Below are positions 18,554 through 24,000 of a stretch of 24,000 bases of DNA, piece by piece. This DNA is from an uncultured Methanosarcinales archaeon (GTDB lineage Archaea; Halobacteriota; Methanosarcinia; Methanosarcinales; Methanosarcinaceae). Location: NCBI GenBank assembly GCA_964434965.1, contig CAYSWX010000023.1, positions 1 through 24,000 of the forward strand. The letters run 5' to 3'. A model generated the notes under the pieces. It was not told the DNA's origin. It saw only the letters and a program-made list of their open reading frames with translations, and searched no databases. Position numbers and translations under genes: made by a program. How positions within the stretch are numbered: the first letter of the stretch is position 1; each line of letters opens with the position of its first letter.

Positions 18554-18759
18554 GGGTCATCTCCTGTAATTTGTACTATCAATTTACTTCTACTCACTTC
18601 TTCTCTGCTATTTCATTCTTCCTTTTTACTTCTCTTTAAACTTTCCAGAATGATAACTGTATTTAATTGGGGTACCGGGTAATCGGGATGCTGGGTGTTT
18701 TACGGAGCGCCTCCTCGTCACTTTCTCTCCTTAATTCGCATACTACTCTTTATTTCTTT

Positions 18760-18779
18760 ATATCAATTATTTTTGATAC
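18760..18779. promoter_or_regulatory. Operator-like inverted repeat ATATCAA-TTATTT-TTGATAc overlapping a TTTATATC TATA-like box
   Basis: Read directly. Near-identical to the repeat at 20389-20408. Lies upstream of the small ORF and first AhpD-like gene. Confidence 0.4.
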
Positions 18780-18868
18780 TCGTGCATGGTTTTTTAATGC
18801 TGATTTTCAATATTTCTTAAAAGGAATTGAGTTTGGATTAAGAATTGTCGAGCTAAGGAGACAGGATA

Positions 18869-19021
18869 ATGGAAAATAAAAAGGAGATTTTGCCAGAGGA
18901 AGAGAGTTCAGAAAAGGATAAACTGGACGATGATGAAGACCTTCTATATACACATAAGCCCGAGTCCCGCGGCAATGAAATGCGCTGGAACACCAGTTTG
19001 TGCAGAAAACCCGGCCGCTGA
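18869..19021 (+). CDS. Possible 50-aa acidic small ORF
   Basis: My own translation: MENKKEILPEEESSEKDKLDDDEDLLYTHKPESRGNEMRWNTSLCRKPGR. AAGGAG lies 8 nt upstream. The competing antisense ORF (18853-19044) is Ser-rich and low complexity. No homology recognised. Confidence 0.25.
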   Translation: MENKKEILPEEESSEKDKLDDDEDLLYTHKPESRGNEMRWNTSLCRKPGR

Positions 19022-19096: not shown

Positions 19097-19444
19097 GTGT
19101 CATTTTTAAACGACATGTTACCTGAAACCGCTGAAGCTTTCGGACAGATGAGGAATTCCATTTTCAAGGATGGCTTCCTTGATGTCAAAACAAAAGAGCT
19201 AATCGCAATTGCCTCTGCGGTACTTATGCGCTGCCAGTTCTGTGTTGATGCGCACTCTCAAAGGGCAGTTGCTGCCGGGGCTGCAAAGGAAGAAATTGCC
19301 GAAGCAATTGCCGTTGCCATGTTCGTTGCTGCCGGGTCGCAGATTGGGTGGGCGAACGTGTATGGTGAAAGCATATATGATAAAATCTTTAAAAAGGATA
19401 AAGACGAAGAGGACTCCTGCTGTTGCTGTGGAGAGAGAAAGTAA
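19097..19444 (+). CDS. AhpD/carboxymuconolactone-decarboxylase-like CxxC protein with a C-terminal CCCC tail (copy 1)
   Basis: KELIAIASAVLMRCQFCVDAHSQRAVAAGA is the CMD/AhpD CxxC..H signature. The C-terminus reads DSCCCCGERK. GTG start with GGAGGA 6 nt upstream, and the N-terminus is collinear with copy 2. Confidence 0.85.
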   Translation: MSFLNDMLPETAEAFGQMRNSIFKDGFLDVKTKELIAIASAVLMRCQFCVDAHSQRAVAAGAAKEEIAEAIAVAMFVAAGSQIGWANVYGESIYDKIFKKDKDEEDSCCCCGERK

Positions 19445-19499: not shown

Positions 19500-19859
19500 T
19501 TATTCCAGTTTTTTGTTTTGTACCTGAGATATTGTCTTTAAAATTCCTGCAAATTCAGGGTTCAGCCTGTAAAACCGCCATTTTGAGCTGTTGTAGGCTT
19601 CGATGATCCCGCAGTTTTTCAAAATTGACAGGTGATGGGAAACAAGGTTCTGCCTCTCGTTTAACTTGAATATCAGTTCGCAGACACAGTGGTCTCTCTG
19701 GGAGAGAAAGTAGGTAATCTTCAATCGAATCGGATGTCCGAGAGCGCTGAATATCTCACTGGCTTTTTTGATGTCATTGTCCAGAAAATCTATTTCCTGA
19801 ATCATTTTCTCTTCCCATTCTTTCTTTTTCTCGGGGTCTGCAGGGCAGCAATAACTCAT
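19500..19859 (-). CDS. arsR: ArsR/SmtB-family metalloregulator with a CVC As(III)-type site
   Basis: The HTH region LGHPIRLKITYFLSQRDHCVCELIFKLNERQNLVSHHLSILKNCGII contains the CVC motif in helix 3. There is also an additional vicinal Cys pair at the N-terminus (MSYCCP). Confidence 0.85.
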   Translation of the reverse strand: MSYCCPADPEKKKEWEEKMIQEIDFLDNDIKKASEIFSALGHPIRLKITYFLSQRDHCVCELIFKLNERQNLVSHHLSILKNCGIIEAYNSSKWRFYRLNPEFAGILKTISQVQNKKLE

Positions 19860-19985: not shown

Positions 19986-20300
19986 TCAATTAAATTCAAT
20001 ACTGATACTCCTTGCTTTTTTTGCCAGTGACTTTGCCATAAAACCGCTTTCCAATTTGCAGAGATTAAGTATTGCACAGGGCACAAGGCAGTTTGAGGAA
20101 CACTGTGCTTCCTGTGCTTTATCGATTACATAGTTCTTCTTGATGTCCAGAGTTTCCATCATGGGAATTTGCATATGTGAAAACTTTTTTATTTTTTCAC
20201 ATGGGGTTTCAATATCTACAATAATCTTATCTCCTTTCATGCTCCCCTTGATTTTGTGGGTAAAACCGCAAATGGTAGAACTTACTATAATTTCGCTCAA
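19986..20300 (-). CDS. Small six-cysteine protein of unknown function (copy 1, 104 aa)
   Basis: Intact ORF, about 79% identical (82/104 by manual alignment) to the ORF at 23033-23353. Conserved Cys residues are at 11, 34, 67, 71, 75 and 81 (C-x3-C-x3-C-x5-C). It lies upstream of arsR on the same strand. Confidence 0.7.
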   Translation of the reverse strand: MSEIIVSSTICGFTHKIKGSMKGDKIIVDIETPCEKIKKFSHMQIPMMETLDIKKNYVIDKAQEAQCSSNCLVPCAILNLCKLESGFMAKSLAKKARSISIEFN

Positions 20301-20388: not shown

Positions 20389-20408
20389 ATATCAATTCTC
20401 TTTGATAT
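20389..20408. promoter_or_regulatory. Operator-like perfect inverted repeat ATATCAA-TTCTCT-TTGATAT in a divergent promoter region
   Basis: Read directly. Lies between the six-Cys gene/arsR operon (minus strand) and AhpD-like copy 2 (plus strand). Second occurrence of the motif seen at 18760-18779. Confidence 0.45.
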
Positions 20409-20461: not shown

Positions 20462-20812
20462 ATGCCATTCATAAACGAAATACTGCCTGATACCGCTGAA
20501 GCATTCGGAAAACTGAGAGATTCTATCTTCCAGGGTGGAGAGCTTGACCGCAAGACCAAGGAACTCATAGCCATTGCCTCTTCTGTCCTTATGCGCTGCC
20601 AGTTCTGTGTTGATACGCACTCCCAGAGAGCTGTTGCTGCCGGGGCTAGCAAAAAAGAAATTGCAGAGGCTATTGCCATTGCTATGTTTATAGCCGGAGG
20701 CTCTCAGCTCGGTTGGACAAATGTTTATGGCAAGAGCGTTTATGACATCATCTTTGGAGAGAAAAAGCCTGAGGAGTCCGAAAAAGAGAAAGGTTGCTGT
20801 TGTGAAAACTGA
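20462..20812 (+). CDS. AhpD/CMD-like CxxC protein with a C-terminal CCC tail (copy 2)
   Basis: About 75% identical to copy 1 over 98 aa by manual alignment. Has the same MRCQFCVDTHSQRAVAAGA core and ends KGCCCEN. I place the start at ATG 20462 (GGAGGA 5 nt upstream, collinear with copy 1) rather than the ORF-track start at 20402. Confidence 0.85.
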   Translation: MPFINEILPDTAEAFGKLRDSIFQGGELDRKTKELIAIASSVLMRCQFCVDTHSQRAVAAGASKKEIAEAIAIAMFIAGGSQLGWTNVYGKSVYDIIFGEKKPEESEKEKGCCCEN

Positions 20813-20950: not shown

Positions 20951-22003
20951 TCAAAACCTGAATTTTTCCCTGTTCCTTTCCATAATCTTCACAAGGGAAA
21001 GCATAACAGGCACTTCCACAAGCACTCCCACAACTGTTGCTAGAGCAGCTCCTGATTCCATCCCGAATAGAATTAAGGCTACTGCCACTGCCAGTTCAAA
21101 GAAATTGCTGGCGCCGATAAAGGTTGAAGGTGCAGCTTCCATGTAAGGGATTTTCAGGTATTTTGCTCCTGCATAACCGATCCAGAAGATCAGGTAAGTC
21201 TGAATCACCAGAGGGATTGCGATCAGGAGAATGTGCAGGGGATAATTTATGATGTTTTTTCCCTGGAATATAAAAATCAGGACCAGAGTAATTAAGAGCC
21301 CGGCAGGAGTGATCCACTGTGTTTTTTGAATGAGTTTGTTTTCAAACCAGTCAATGCCTTTTTTCCTTATCACCACCTGTCTTGTAAGCACAGCAAGGCC
21401 GAGGGGAATTGCAACATAAAAAAGGACAGAAACGAAGATTGTCATAAGAGGGACAGGAAAGTCAGTTGTGACTCCGAGGAGAAACTTTCCTAGTGGGGCA
21501 AAAAGGACCAGGATGATAAGGTCATTTACTGAGACCTGAATCAGAGCATAATTAATATTCGCTCTTGCAAGATAAGTCCAGACGAGTACCATAGCCGTAC
21601 AGGGGGCAATCCCAAGCAGGATCATGCCTGCGATATACTGAGCCTGAAGGTCAGCATTGATCAGGGATTCAAAGAGCACGCGCATAAAGAGCCATGCAAT
21701 AAATGCCATTGTAAAGGGCTTGATTACCCAGTTTATGACGAGAGTCAGAAGGAGGGGCTTTAGATTTGCTTCAACGTTCAGAATTTCTTCAAAGTTGATT
21801 TTAAGCATGATAGGGTACATCATGATCAGGAGCACAACAGCTACGGGAATTGAAACATTTGCAATCTCAATCCCTCCAAGAGTGTCCGCAAAACCTGGAA
21901 AAATATAGCCTATTGCAGTCCCGAGTATTATACAGACCGCAACCCAGATAGAGAGATATTTACTGAAGAAATCTAGTTCCCTTTCTTCCTCCTCTTCAGG
22001 CAT
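20951..22003 (-). CDS. acr3: ACR3-family arsenite efflux carrier
   Basis: 350 aa and polytopic. MYPIMLKI, LLGIAPCTAMVLVW (the conserved transport Cys), GASNFFELAVAVA and VGVLVEVPVML are characteristic ACR3 motifs. Confidence 0.9.
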   Translation of the reverse strand: MPEEEEERELDFFSKYLSIWVAVCIILGTAIGYIFPGFADTLGGIEIANVSIPVAVVLLIMMYPIMLKINFEEILNVEANLKPLLLTLVINWVIKPFTMAFIAWLFMRVLFESLINADLQAQYIAGMILLGIAPCTAMVLVWTYLARANINYALIQVSVNDLIILVLFAPLGKFLLGVTTDFPVPLMTIFVSVLFYVAIPLGLAVLTRQVVIRKKGIDWFENKLIQKTQWITPAGLLITLVLIFIFQGKNIINYPLHILLIAIPLVIQTYLIFWIGYAGAKYLKIPYMEAAPSTFIGASNFFELAVAVALILFGMESGAALATVVGVLVEVPVMLSLVKIMERNREKFRF

Positions 22004-22883
22004 ATTCCTCCCCTTCGTCCCACTCTTCTCCGTCGAACTCTTTGCTTGCAGGGATGATCATCACAGGCTTTGCGGTTTTCCGGAGTACGTTTTCTGCCGT
22101 ACTCCCGAGCAGTATGTCCATTAAATCTCCTTTCCCACGGGTGGTCAGCATAATCAGGGTGATATCTTCTATACTGGCAAGCTTAACAATTTCATCGGAT
22201 GGGATGCCCTCAACGACAAGGCACTGGCTTTTTATTCCTTCAACCCGTTCCTTTATTTTCCTGAGCTTTTCTTTTGCCTCTTCTCTCTGTTCATCCAGAA
22301 GGTCCATATCTTTTATATCATCTATCACATGGATGAAAAGAACCTCTTTTATGACCTCTTTAAGCTCCTGAAGCTGTTCGACCGCTTTCATTGACCCTTT
22401 CGAAAAATCCAGAGGCATAAGGATCCGCGAGAAAGTTGCCCTGCACGCCTTCTCATAAACTTCTTTTCCTTCTTTCAGAGCATCATACTTTTCGACCAGC
22501 AGCATTTTTTTTGAACTGCGTGCTATATATTCCGTAGTCCTTCCGAGAAATTTCCCTTTTATAAATCCTTCAGTGGTGGCTCCCATTATTATAGCATCAA
22601 CATCTTTTCTGTCGGCTATTTCCGAAATTGTCCTCTTTACATCTCCTACTATTACCAGGGGTTCGGTTTCAAGTTCAAGTTCGCTTGCAAAGCCTGTGTA
22701 GTCCTCGATTCTTTTCTCTGCATTTCGTTCAAACATAGGGGTAAGCCCCTGGCTTTTATGTATGTCCACCACATGCAGCAAAATAACCTTCTTCAAGCCT
22801 GCGTTTTTAAGTTCCCCTATGCAGCCAAGCAAATCTTCCGTTTCGATAGAAAAATCCACAGGAACGAGTACTGTGCTTATCAT
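21996..22883 (-). CDS. Tandem universal stress protein (2x UspA domain)
   Basis: Two Usp-like halves begin VLVPVDFS... and ILMPLDFS..., and each ends with a G-x2-G-x9-GS-like ATP motif (TTRGKGDLMDILLGSTAENVLR). Its last 8 nt overlap the acr3 start. Confidence 0.85.
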   Translation of the reverse strand: MISTVLVPVDFSIETEDLLGCIGELKNAGLKKVILLHVVDIHKSQGLTPMFERNAEKRIEDYTGFASELELETEPLVIVGDVKRTISEIADRKDVDAIIMGATTEGFIKGKFLGRTTEYIARSSKKMLLVEKYDALKEGKEVYEKACRATFSRILMPLDFSKGSMKAVEQLQELKEVIKEVLFIHVIDDIKDMDLLDEQREEAKEKLRKIKERVEGIKSQCLVVEGIPSDEIVKLASIEDITLIMLTTRGKGDLMDILLGSTAENVLRKTAKPVMIIPASKEFDGEEWDEGEEYA

Positions 22884-23032: not shown

Positions 23033-23353
23033 TCATACTTCATTAAAATCAATACTGAGGCTTCCTGCTTTTTTTGCCAGTGACTTTGCGATAAATCCGC
23101 TTTCCAGCTTGCAGAGGTTAAGCACCCCACAGGGCACCAGGCAGTTTGAGCAGCATTTTGCTTCTTTTGCCCTGTCTATCACATAGTTGTCTTTGATATC
23201 CATGGTTTCCATCATGGGAACTTCCATATGCGAGATTTGCTTTATTTTTTCACACGGAGTTTCGATATCCACAATGATTTTTCCACCTTTCATGCTTCCA
23301 CAAATTTTGTGGGTAAAGTCGCATATTGTAGAGTTGACGGTAATTTCAGCCAT
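23033..23353 (-). CDS. Small six-cysteine protein of unknown function (copy 2, 106 aa)
   Basis: Paralog of 19986-20300 with the same six Cys positions plus two extra (Cys18, Cys68). Confidence 0.7.
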   Translation of the reverse strand: MAEITVNSTICDFTHKICGSMKGGKIIVDIETPCEKIKQISHMEVPMMETMDIKDNYVIDRAKEAKCCSNCLVPCGVLNLCKLESGFIAKSLAKKAGSLSIDFNEV

Positions 23354-23499: not shown

Positions 23500-23730
23500 T
23501 CATTCAATCCATTTTCGGATTTCCTTTTCATCCGGAACCTTGCCTGCAAGCTTAACTTCGCCATCAACCACAACTGCAGGTGTGACCATTACGCCGTAGT
23601 TCAGGATCGTTTCAATGTCCTCCACTTTGACGATTTCAGCTTCAACACCATTTTGCTTCAATACTTTTTCAATTGTTTCTTTTGTTTTCTTACATTTTGA
23701 ACAACCAGTTCCAAGAATTTCGATTTTCAT
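23500..23730 (-). CDS. Small thioredoxin-fold redox-active disulfide protein (CxxC)
   Basis: 76 aa. MKIEILGTGCSKCKKT...VMVTPAVVVDGEVKLAGKVP matches the pattern of the 'small redox-active disulfide protein 2' family, which commonly sits next to DUF318-type permeases. Confidence 0.8.
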   Translation of the reverse strand: MKIEILGTGCSKCKKTKETIEKVLKQNGVEAEIVKVEDIETILNYGVMVTPAVVVDGEVKLAGKVPDEKEIRKWIE

Positions 23731-23831: not shown

Positions 23832-24000
23832 TCATAGAATTATGTTAAATAGATATCCCGTAATAATTATGGATATACTCACAATTATCACAAAGGCAGC
23901 TATCAGTTCGTTTTTAAGCACTTTTTTCAAGATTATCATTTCTGGAAGAGAAAGCGCAGTTACTCCCATAAGGAAGGCAAGAGCAGTGCCTACTGGAAGT
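23832..24000 (-). CDS. C-terminal end of a DUF318/ArsP-like permease (partial, continues beyond the window)
   Basis: My own minus-strand translation: ...LPVGTALAFLMGVTALSLPEMIILKKVLKNELIAAFVIIVSISIIITGYLFNIIL, then a stop. The hydrophobic SLPEMIILKKV segment resembles the C-terminus of the predicted-permease (DUF318/ArsP) family. Only 55 residues are visible. Confidence 0.55.
   Translation of the reverse strand, partial: LPVGTALAFLMGVTALSLPEMIILKKVLKNELIAAFVIIVSISIIITGYLFNIIL

Follow-up and report, generated by a model that had tools for sequence, protein, structure and literature searches.

The question raised by this locus is whether a run of cysteines at the extreme C-terminus of two small thiol-disulfide proteins has a function and, if so, whether this function is the handling of arsenic. 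The locus is found on a contig of 50.4 kb (CAYSWX010000023.1, designated C23) from a Methanosarcina genome of 3.98 Mb that is 97.9% complete; the opening 24,000 nucleotides of this contig, which contain the locus, were analysed in full and are called the window below. It carries two paralogous genes of the carboxymuconolactone decarboxylase (CMD)/AhpD-core superfamily, CMD1 (19097..19444, plus strand) and CMD2 (20462..20812, plus strand), both situated in an arsenic (ars) island. An earlier examination of the same DNA (the original prediction) had proposed that the adjacent thiols of the tails capture As(III) by three-sulfur (S3) coordination or form a shuttle disulfide. The present analysis indicates that the tail is real, and its conservation argues that it is not due to chance and is under purifying selection in both paralogs; as to arsenic handling, this interpretation is plausible but unproven.

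Conservation and Origin of the Cysteine Tail

The product of CMD1 has 115 amino acids (aa) and ends in SCCCCGERK (...KKDKDEEDSCCCCGERK), while the product of CMD2, 68% identical to it, has 116 aa and ends in GCCCEN (...EKEKGCCCEN). In CMD1, the tail segment (19391..19441, plus strand) consists of the charged linker KKDKDEEDS, four cysteine codons (TGC TGT TGC TGT, 19418-19429) and GERK; in CMD2, the cysteine codons TGC TGT TGT (20795..20803, plus strand) are followed by GAA AAC TGA, i.e., the protein ends as C-C-C-x-x-stop. Searches of 5.8 billion proteins yielded 374 and 344 homologs for the two proteins, and the tails were counted over the 197 full-length cluster representatives listed for both paralogs. 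Every one of these has at least two cysteines among its last 12 residues (two in 32 clusters, three in 55, four in 56, and five in 54), and in 183 of the 197 exactly two residues follow the last cysteine. The terminal triplet is CCC in 155/196 and CxC in 32/196. Proteins of the copy-1 lineage end in [SC]CCCC[EGK][DE] and those of the copy-2 lineage, to which the CMD2 orthologs belong, in GC[CSGNI]CG[NKQRD]; the conserved unit of the tail is C-x-C-x-x-COOH, where x is mostly cysteine, with additional cysteine further upstream in copy 1. CMD1 of the window is atypical, having four residues (GERK, 19430-19444) after the last cysteine, while its closest relatives end in ...CCCCGE-stop. The retention of the tail in both paralogs, as originally proposed, is thus borne out by all the clusters, but a cysteine run of fixed length is not, the unit being C-x-C-x-x-COOH. 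The accompanying claim, that the linkers diverged while the cysteines stayed, holds as well: the linker that joins the last helix to the tail comprises 8-25 residues, 74% of them Glu, Lys or Asp, and varies both in length and in sequence.

The codons of the tail are a mixture of TGC and TGT that undergoes synonymous change between species, with a ratio of 45:33 as compared to 4288:3357 genome-wide. Such synonymous variation at a genome-like ratio points to selection acting on the amino acid rather than to a repeat artefact. In a six-frame scan of the whole genome, open reading frames (ORFs) of at least 60 aa containing CCC numbered 50, most of them short unsupported frames; three of the 50, namely CMD1, CMD2 and a small ORF beginning with MGTNKSCCCGSS, fall within 7.2 kb of the island.

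As to the origin of the tail, a scan of 151 genomes of the order gave matches extending through it only in the genus of the window and in one closely related genus (g1, g7). Three sister genera of the family possess orthologs of 93-100 aa, about 60% identical, with a CE[KR]C site and no terminal cysteines. Because such orthologs are devoid of the tail, its distribution indicates a lineage-specific gain and not a trait of the whole family. Two other family members have short tails (LCCGNPK in genome G055 and NKCCCGGSK in genome G487). To keep the tail from driving the topology, a maximum-likelihood tree was confined to residues 1-95. All tailed Methanosarcina sequences formed one clade in it (support 99/98), and copy 2 appeared as a subclade (100/98) nested inside copy 1, which argues for a single gain of the tail before a duplication whose two products both retained it. 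Among the best 150 relatives in the 50%-identity clusters of 15 billion proteins, cysteine tails were almost confined to these clusters. Absence of the tail from close orthologs had been regarded as damaging to the original prediction, and here the outcome is divided: the sister-genus orthologs at about 60% identity are tailless, but within the tailed lineage 197 of 197 clusters keep the tail.

The sole "tailless" member of the tailed clade (G134:C3, L008) owes its state to a single GAG-to-TAG change in codon 105 of the CMD1 ortholog, within the linker; downstream of the TAG, the DCCCCCDD codons and the normal TGA stop are unchanged. A pyrrolysine-decoding Methanosarcina could read through this TAG and produce both tailed and tailless forms; otherwise the truncation would be very recent.

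Family, Fold, and Relation to Known Proteins

By every test made, CMD1 and CMD2 are ordinary members of the CMD/AhpD-core superfamily. Both match the Pfam CMD family PF02627 (76.8 and 80 bits against a cut-off of 23; E-values 1.3e-21 for CMD1 and 1e-22 for CMD2) and the AhpD core domain model TIGR00778 (ahpD_dom; 59.7 and 64.3 bits, cut-off 27.8), and each is a single-domain CMD protein. The catalytic signature E34-x11-C46-x2-C49-x3-H53 is encoded at 19196..19255 in CMD1 and at 20561..20620 in CMD2 (both on the plus strand); it combines the AhpD-type motif MRCQFCVD[AT]H, common to the two, with the upstream glutamate E34. C46 and H53 show no variation among 64 aligned homologs, and at least 90% of these keep E34 and C49. 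The GTG start codon of CMD1 is located nine bases downstream of a GGAGG Shine-Dalgarno sequence, and orthologs begin with MSFLNEML at this position; CMD2 starts with ATG, also with GGAGG upstream. The coordinates, sequences, and Pfam/NCBIfam matches thus agree with the initial reading of both ORFs as AhpD-like proteins with a CxxC motif.

The AlphaFold2 (AF2) model of CMD1 (pLDDT 84.7) predicts, with confidence, an all-helical structure of six helices for residues 1-100, while residues 104-115 have pLDDT below 50, i.e., the tail is predicted to be flexible. The best Foldseek matches are the small CMD proteins 3BEY, 7Y4R (RclX), 1VKE/1P8C and 5DIK, with a probability of 1.0 and target-normalised TM-scores of up to 0.85. 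CMD1 and CMD2 are probably small cytoplasmic thiol-disulfide proteins that presumably form oligomers, as do relatives of known structure. AhpD of Mycobacterium tuberculosis and the small hexameric CMD proteins (3BEY, 1VKE/1P8C, 5DIK lpg0406, 7Y4R RclX) share with them the E-x11-CxxC-x3-H signature and the all-helical fold, identity to 3BEY and 7Y4R being 35-40%, but none of these proteins has a cysteine tail.

Several more specific assignments were considered and rejected. AhpD proper (TIGR00777) is a protein of about 175 aa with a duplicated fold, while CMD1 and CMD2, of 115-116 aa, score 23.0 and 22.4 bits against its threshold of 191.95; no gene for an AhpC/peroxiredoxin partner occurs in the island. 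The scores are likewise below the thresholds of the arsenosugar-associated peroxidase-like protein (TIGR04169; 52.2 and 50.2 bits against 120), and the island contains no radical-SAM gene as an ArsS-type neighbour, as well as of the GSU3128 family (seleno)protein (NF041047; 38.7 and 32 bits against 110). Two other families, the ArsM/AhpD-domain fusion selenoprotein (ArsM_AhpD_UU, NF041537) and MduS (NF045649), resemble our proteins in having an AhpD-type CxxC/CxxU domain, which is fused in their case with an arsenite-type methyltransferase. Both island proteins can be aligned with this domain at E-values of 1e-9 to 1e-10; however, their scores (37-41 bits against 380-510) do not allow membership, and in the window the domain is free-standing and bears a cysteine tail, with ArsM encoded by a separate gene 8 kb away. 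No NCBIfam model claims CMD1 or CMD2.

The closest functional precedent in the genus is MdrA (MA3736) of Methanosarcina acetivorans, an Fe-S cluster protein that reduces protein disulfides by means of its CxxC, as reported by Lessner and Ferry (2007), cited in PMC3426412, PMC5615479, and bioRxiv 10.1101/2024.03.05.583561. MdrA is similar to the proteins discussed here in its small CMD fold, catalytic CxxC, additional cysteines, and thiol-redox gene setting. It differs from them in being a separate paralog, in which the site is CESC, the additional cysteines are internal and the C-terminus bears no cysteine tail; it has been linked to oxidative stress and not to an ars island. The identity of CMD1 or CMD2 with MdrA was rejected, as the MA3736 sequence, taken from a published supplement, matches another paralog of the genome studied, a tailless protein encoded on contig C6 with a CE[SR]C site and about 33% identity to the island CMD proteins.

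C-terminal cysteines or selenocysteines are also known outside the CMD superfamily. According to a 2026 review (PMC13188914), which also names the ArsM/AhpD-domain fusion, such motifs in the products of metal(loid) operons (SaoC with Cys-Cys-COOH, and the UXX-star families) are presumed ligands. The resemblance includes the position of Cys/Sec, two or three residues from the C-terminus, and the operons, which contain the ArsP_1-like SaoE and the CxxC thioredoxin-like SaoT, but the protein families are different: CMD1 and CMD2 match no NCBIfam Sao or UXX-star model, and the permeases of the island reach 114 bits against the SaoE cut-off of 325. The original impression that a poly-cysteine tail had not been described agrees with our reading of the searchable literature, in which we found no such tail for CMD/AhpD proteins and no description of a CMD protein as an ars gene; in neither case is absence proven.

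A Second Tailed CMD Subfamily

Outside the window, the same genome encodes a second tailed CMD protein (contig C31, approximately 28520-28843, minus strand) of 107 aa, which ends in ...GNISCSCEK, is 28% identical to CMD1, and has a single-cysteine RS[KR]PC site. Its subfamily (hereafter, C31-type) comprises 1126 homologs from bacterial and archaeal phyla. The best 120 of these 1126 are all at least 79% identical to it and come from Methanosarcina, Methanolobus, Desulfotomaculaceae, Eubacteriales, Dethiobacteria, Spirochaetes, Thermodesulfobacteriota, Planctomycetes, and Chloroflexi; conservation of this degree across phyla suggests the horizontal spread of a constrained protein. The C-terminus is nearly always GN[IV]xCxCxx-COOH, expanded in some Methanosarcinaceae to SCCCAGDEEK or SCSCCGDEDK.

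Five of the seven C31-type contexts examined contain, next to the CMD gene, ArsR or genes of the same module (ArsP_1, Thioredoxin_3 (Trx_3), DGC, DUF6951, DsbD, ACR3), and the other two contain no such genes. The gene orders are ArsR, ArsP_1, Trx_3, CMD in Desulfotomaculum arcticum; ArsR, FmdE, CMD, ArsP_1, Trx_3, ACR3 in a Thermodesulfobacteriota genome; three DGC genes, ArsR, CMD and a universal stress protein gene (Usp) in a Firmicutes contig; CMD followed by DUF6951 in Methanolobus; and ArsR, Trx_3, Trx and DsbD divergent from CMD in another contig. In genome G487, a C31-type gene with a CCC tail belongs to a cluster of DGC, Trx_3, and ArsP_1 located 1.5 kb from the CMD1-type gene. The occurrence of the same terminal motif in two distant CMD branches that share the same gene vocabulary is the strongest argument for a defined role of the tail tied to this module.

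Two further readings were set aside. The tailed proteins might be taken for precursors of ribosomally synthesised peptides (RiPPs), since radical-SAM/SPASM genes flank two bacterial C31-type loci; such genes occur in no Methanosarcina island, and the proteins have a folded domain with an intact catalytic site. Lipidation, by analogy with the Rab-like CXC/CCXX prenylation, is unlikely, and we know of no prenylation machinery in these bacteria. One more CMD paralog of the genome (contig C2, approximately 146001-146400, plus strand), with an RCQHC site, has a different cysteine-rich end, ...EQCCDPDCDVCNIAGVNIK, from which it appears that cysteine-rich C-termini recur among the CMD paralogs of Methanosarcina.

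Genomic Context and Regulation

The immediate neighbour of CMD1 is a gene of an ArsR/SmtB regulator (19500..19859, minus strand; PF01022, E 2.4e-14; NF033788, 77 bits, above the cut-off) with the N-terminal sequence MSYCCP and an internal CVC; its orthologs adjoin CMD1 orthologs in other Methanosarcina genomes. The CCP motif was also seen in ArsR genes beside CMD genes of G055 (MRCCPEDP) and of locus L046 (EICCPGD), and its recurrence at the N-terminus of CMD-adjacent ArsR suggests a vicinal-cysteine sensing site. The following features of the window are all on the minus strand: the first DUF6951 gene (19986..20300; PF22263, E 2.3e-22), the gene of the ACR3 arsenite efflux carrier (20951..22003; TIGR00832, 381 bits against a cut-off of 282.8), which is convergent with CMD2, that of a tandem Usp (21996..22883; PF00582, E 3.4e-41), the second DUF6951 gene (23033..23353; PF22263, E 5.8e-21), the gene of a Thioredoxin_3 protein of the MTH895/ArsE family (23500..23730; PF13192, E 2.6e-29; TIGR00412, 108.5 bits against 62), which has a CxxC motif and is a candidate reductant or partner of the CMD proteins, and the 3' part of the gene of an ArsP_1-family permease with a TPFCSCS motif (23832..24000, continuing to contig position 24803; PF03773, E 3.9e-71). 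Kinship of the CMD proteins with the ArsEFG module of Shewanella putrefaciens 200 was also considered; the name ArsE is used by NCBIfam for the Trx_3 family. The island reaches past the end of the window on contig C23. Its order is as follows: an operator, a small ORF, and CMD1; ArsR and the first DUF6951 gene; an operator and CMD2; ACR3 and Usp; the second DUF6951 gene, Thioredoxin_3 and the ArsP_1 permease; ArsR, a small CCC ORF, another ArsR and an ArsP_1 permease; ArsM and ArsR; CcdA/DsbD with a membrane thioredoxin; and, finally, a DGC protein gene and an ArsP_1 permease.

ArsM (NF008823, 360 bits; C23:28237-28998, minus strand) has an N-terminal GGSCCSGSSCCGDSS stretch, another vicinal-cysteine extension in the island. 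The small ORF beginning with MGTNKSCCCGSS (88 aa; C23:25996-26262, plus strand) is located 2 kb past the end of the window between two ArsR genes; it has no Pfam or NCBIfam match, is accompanied by a copy of the palindrome described below (at 25908), and is kept at the same place in three other genomes (G108, G015, and G477; 61-85%). In the 97.9%-complete genome no match was found to either arsenate reductase family, PF01451 (LMWPc) or PF03960 (ArsC), yet it encodes ACR3, ArsM, and three ArsP_1 permeases. Neither ArsA nor ArsD is encoded in the island.

Both CMD genes are preceded by a candidate ArsR operator, detected by pattern scan. The palindrome TATCAATTATTTTTGATA (18761..18778), upstream of a small ORF and CMD1, overlaps a TTTATATC TATA-like box, and its second copy (TATCAATTCTCTTTGATA, 20390..20407) is situated in the divergent region between CMD2 and the operon of the first DUF6951 gene and arsR, 55 nt upstream of the CMD2 ATG. 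The pattern TATCAA-N6-TTGATA occurs six times in 3.98 Mb, with five copies on this contig (18761, 20390, 25908, 30888, 38397); five further genomes have it upstream of their CMD orthologs, and in another family it stands upstream of an ACR3-CMD pair. Wherever the palindrome lies near a CMD gene, a TATA-like box of this kind overlaps or precedes it, and overlap with or adjacency to the TATA box is the usual position of archaeal repressors. Given a shared palindrome at a repressor-type position upstream of both genes, CMD1 and CMD2 are very probably members of the ArsR regulon of the island, with arsenite as the presumed inducer. The regulon marked by the palindrome also takes in the CcdA/thioredoxin operon and a site near 38.4 kb. 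Between the palindrome/TATA box (18756-18778) and CMD1, there is an acidic ORF of 50 aa (18869-19021, plus strand); a transcription start near 18790 would place it on one transcript with CMD1, with a leader of about 300 nt.

As to whether the tail tracks arsenic contexts, all six Methanosarcina-type islands examined have the tailed gene among ArsR, ACR3, DUF6951, Trx_3, ArsP_1, ArsM, and CcdA with Trx. In another family (genome G460), a CMD2-type gene whose product ends in GCCCGR is part of an operon of ArsR, ArsP_1, Trx_3, tailed CMD and DGC, with gaps of 20-45 nt, and the short-tailed genes of G055 and G487 adjoin ArsR with the same N-terminal CCP motif. In a complete Methanosarcina genome (G090, L049, C1:717000-736000), the CMD1 ortholog is a pseudogene with an in-frame stop after residue 33, and ACR3 of the same island is split into four pieces nearby; this joint decay of CMD1 and ACR3 suggests that the island is decaying as a unit. 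The arsenic setting supposed in the original prediction is supported by ACR3, ArsM, ArsP_1, the thioredoxin-fold neighbour and the predicted ArsR operator, but the linkage exists without need for a tail, as considered below.

Possible Function of the Tail

We tentatively propose, with a confidence somewhat short of even, that the tail is a ligand-exchange arm that would bind a trivalent metalloid and hand it on by thiol exchange. The thiolates of the tail would bind As(III) via three sulfurs or, alternatively, methyl- or aryl-As(III), and possibly Sb(III), via two. The arm would then pass the metalloid by thiol exchange between the CxxC site of the CMD protein itself and cysteines of a partner, the likely candidates being the CSC of the ArsP_1 permeases (TPFCSCS), ACR3, ArsM, and DUF6951; reduction of the arm would be the task of the CxxC site together with the neighbouring Thioredoxin_3. 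The proposed mechanism has parallels in two kinds of known systems. The C-terminal Cys-Cys tail of MerA and the GCUG/SCCS tails of large thioredoxin reductases are flexible arms that exchange a soft metal or a disulfide with an internal redox cysteine pair; ArsD binds As(III) with its vicinal Cys12-Cys13 and Cys18 and hands it over to a transporter. With the former, the likeness would consist in a flexible C-terminal arm with adjacent Cys/Sec, but MerA and the reductases have the fold of flavoprotein disulfide reductases and no sequence homology to CMD1 and CMD2, so that the analogy is one of mechanism only. With ArsD, it would consist in a small soluble ars-operon protein with vicinal cysteines, but ArsD, a protein with a thioredoxin-like fold, works for the ArsA ATPase, and CMD1 and CMD2 have no ArsD match in Pfam or NCBIfam. 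The metalloid binding and the partners of the hand-off are inferred.

Several observations weigh against this proposal. The minimal conserved tail has two cysteines, one short of the three-sulfur coordination that inorganic As(III) prefers, and, as the invariant core (CxC) contains only two, S3 coordination by three adjacent thiols does not appear to be required by the data. Regulators of the ArsR/SmtB family respond to other metals and to redox signals as well. Directly behind ArsR-ACR3, another family of the order encodes tailless orthologs (L046, L047, L058, and L060), from which it follows that the core may act in an ars setting without the tail and that the association of this CMD subfamily with ars genes predates the tail and is more widespread than it. 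The tail thus tracks ars contexts on one side, in the tailed genes of the six ars-type islands, but not on the other, given these tailless orthologs. In addition, no ars-like gene was seen within about 9 kb of ten tailless orthologs from the sister genera. Finally, the paralog MdrA is said to use its extra cysteines for an Fe-S cluster in the passages concerned (PMC3426412, PMC5615479, bioRxiv 10.1101/2024.03.05.583561).

Other explanations of the tail assign it a different chemistry. It might be a redox swinging arm that relays a disulfide from the CxxC (or from the single cysteine of the C31-type) to Thioredoxin_3, the substrate being As(V), a pentavalent organoarsenical, a protein disulfide or a peroxide. 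Thioredoxin-coupled ArsC, with its Cys10-Cys82-Cys89 cascade, and the GCUG tail can be likened to such an arm. The complete AhpD catalytic signature, the adjacency of the Trx_3 gene, or its presence in the same operon, in several lineages, and the lack of both ArsC families in the genome are in agreement with this possibility, as are the sufficiency of two cysteines for a relay, which fits the CxC core, and the ArsM/AhpD-domain fusion selenoproteins of NCBIfam, which tie the domain to arsenic enzymology. Nevertheless, four or five consecutive cysteines exceed the need of a relay, and arsenate is a minor species in methanogenic habitats. Replacement of ArsC by the tailed CMD was considered and rejected, since the two coexist in G108 (LMWPc as an island gene, with a tailed CMD1), and three genomes are devoid of LMWPc as well as of an intact tailed CMD, i.e., there is no pattern of complementarity. 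On balance, we consider the swinging arm, the nearest competitor of the ligand-exchange arm, possible but doubtful. A still more remote option is that the tail cysteines, possibly of several subunits, hold an Fe-S cluster, which would make the protein a redox-sensing or electron-transfer component. It could appeal to the cluster reported for MdrA and to the cysteine-rich ends of other CMD paralogs of the genome, but the identity to MdrA, a separate tailless paralog with a CESC site, is about 33%, the cluster cysteines of MdrA are in internal positions, consecutive cysteines on a disordered tail correspond to no known cluster-binding geometry, and the context is an ArsR-regulated island of efflux and methylation; we therefore regard Fe-S ligation as improbable.

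The tail might also have no arsenic specificity and no partner, being a mini-metallothionein for Cd, Zn, Cu, Hg, and other soft metals or simply a store of thiol capacity. Relatives of ArsP_1 do include Cu/Zn efflux proteins (NF033936 matches), many metals are sensed by ArsR/SmtB regulators, and the island encodes Usp and several other cysteine-rich proteins. Such a general sink is nonetheless hardly probable, in view of the fixed position of the tail two residues from the C-terminus and its constant association with a catalytic CMD core, both of which speak for a defined mechanism, and of the bona fide ACR3 and ArsM in the island. The last alternative denies the tail any function and derives it from slippage at TGY repeats, the product of which is tolerated at a disordered C-terminus. 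The range of cysteine number from 2 to 5, the TAG stop ahead of the tail in one genome and the tailless sister genera could be quoted in its favour. Yet the tail has been lost in none of the 197 clusters, its codons are mixed TGC/TGT with synonymous variation, both paralogs kept it after duplication, and the same terminal motif occurs in the distant C31-type subfamily across phyla; the data thus disfavour the lack of function, which seems very improbable.

Along with the ligand-exchange arm proposed above, a broader view may be considered, according to which CMD proteins with CxCxx-COOH would be an unrecognised core part of ArsR-controlled ArsP_1/Thioredoxin_3 modules in anaerobes, both bacterial and archaeal, acting either as a dedicated carrier that delivers trivalent (organo)arsenicals to ArsP-type permeases or as the missing thioredoxin-coupled As(V)/methyl-As(V) reductase of anaerobes lacking ArsC, this Methanosarcina among them, with the poly-cysteine as a lineage-specific elaboration. 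In this full form we hold it to be unlikely.

Implications

Methanogens are major players in methylating and demethylating arsenic in rice paddies and aquifers, and their ars islands contain many unnamed cysteine-rich genes, while ArsC, ArsA, and ArsD are often missing. Judged by its genomic setting and conservation, the tailed CMD protein is probably an arsenic-handling helper, undescribed as far as we could find. As an AhpD-fold protein with a cysteine tail under the predicted operator of the island, it is a candidate for a missing arsenic step, i.e., the carrying, presenting, or reducing of arsenicals. The presence of C-x-C-x-x-COOH in a second CMD subfamily, distributed among Firmicutes, Thermodesulfobacteriota, Chloroflexi, Planctomycetes, and methanogens, makes the question wider than one genus. 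For genome annotation, the combination of a CMD domain with a terminal CxCxx may serve as a rule that separates these proteins from the generic "carboxymuconolactone decarboxylase family" entries.

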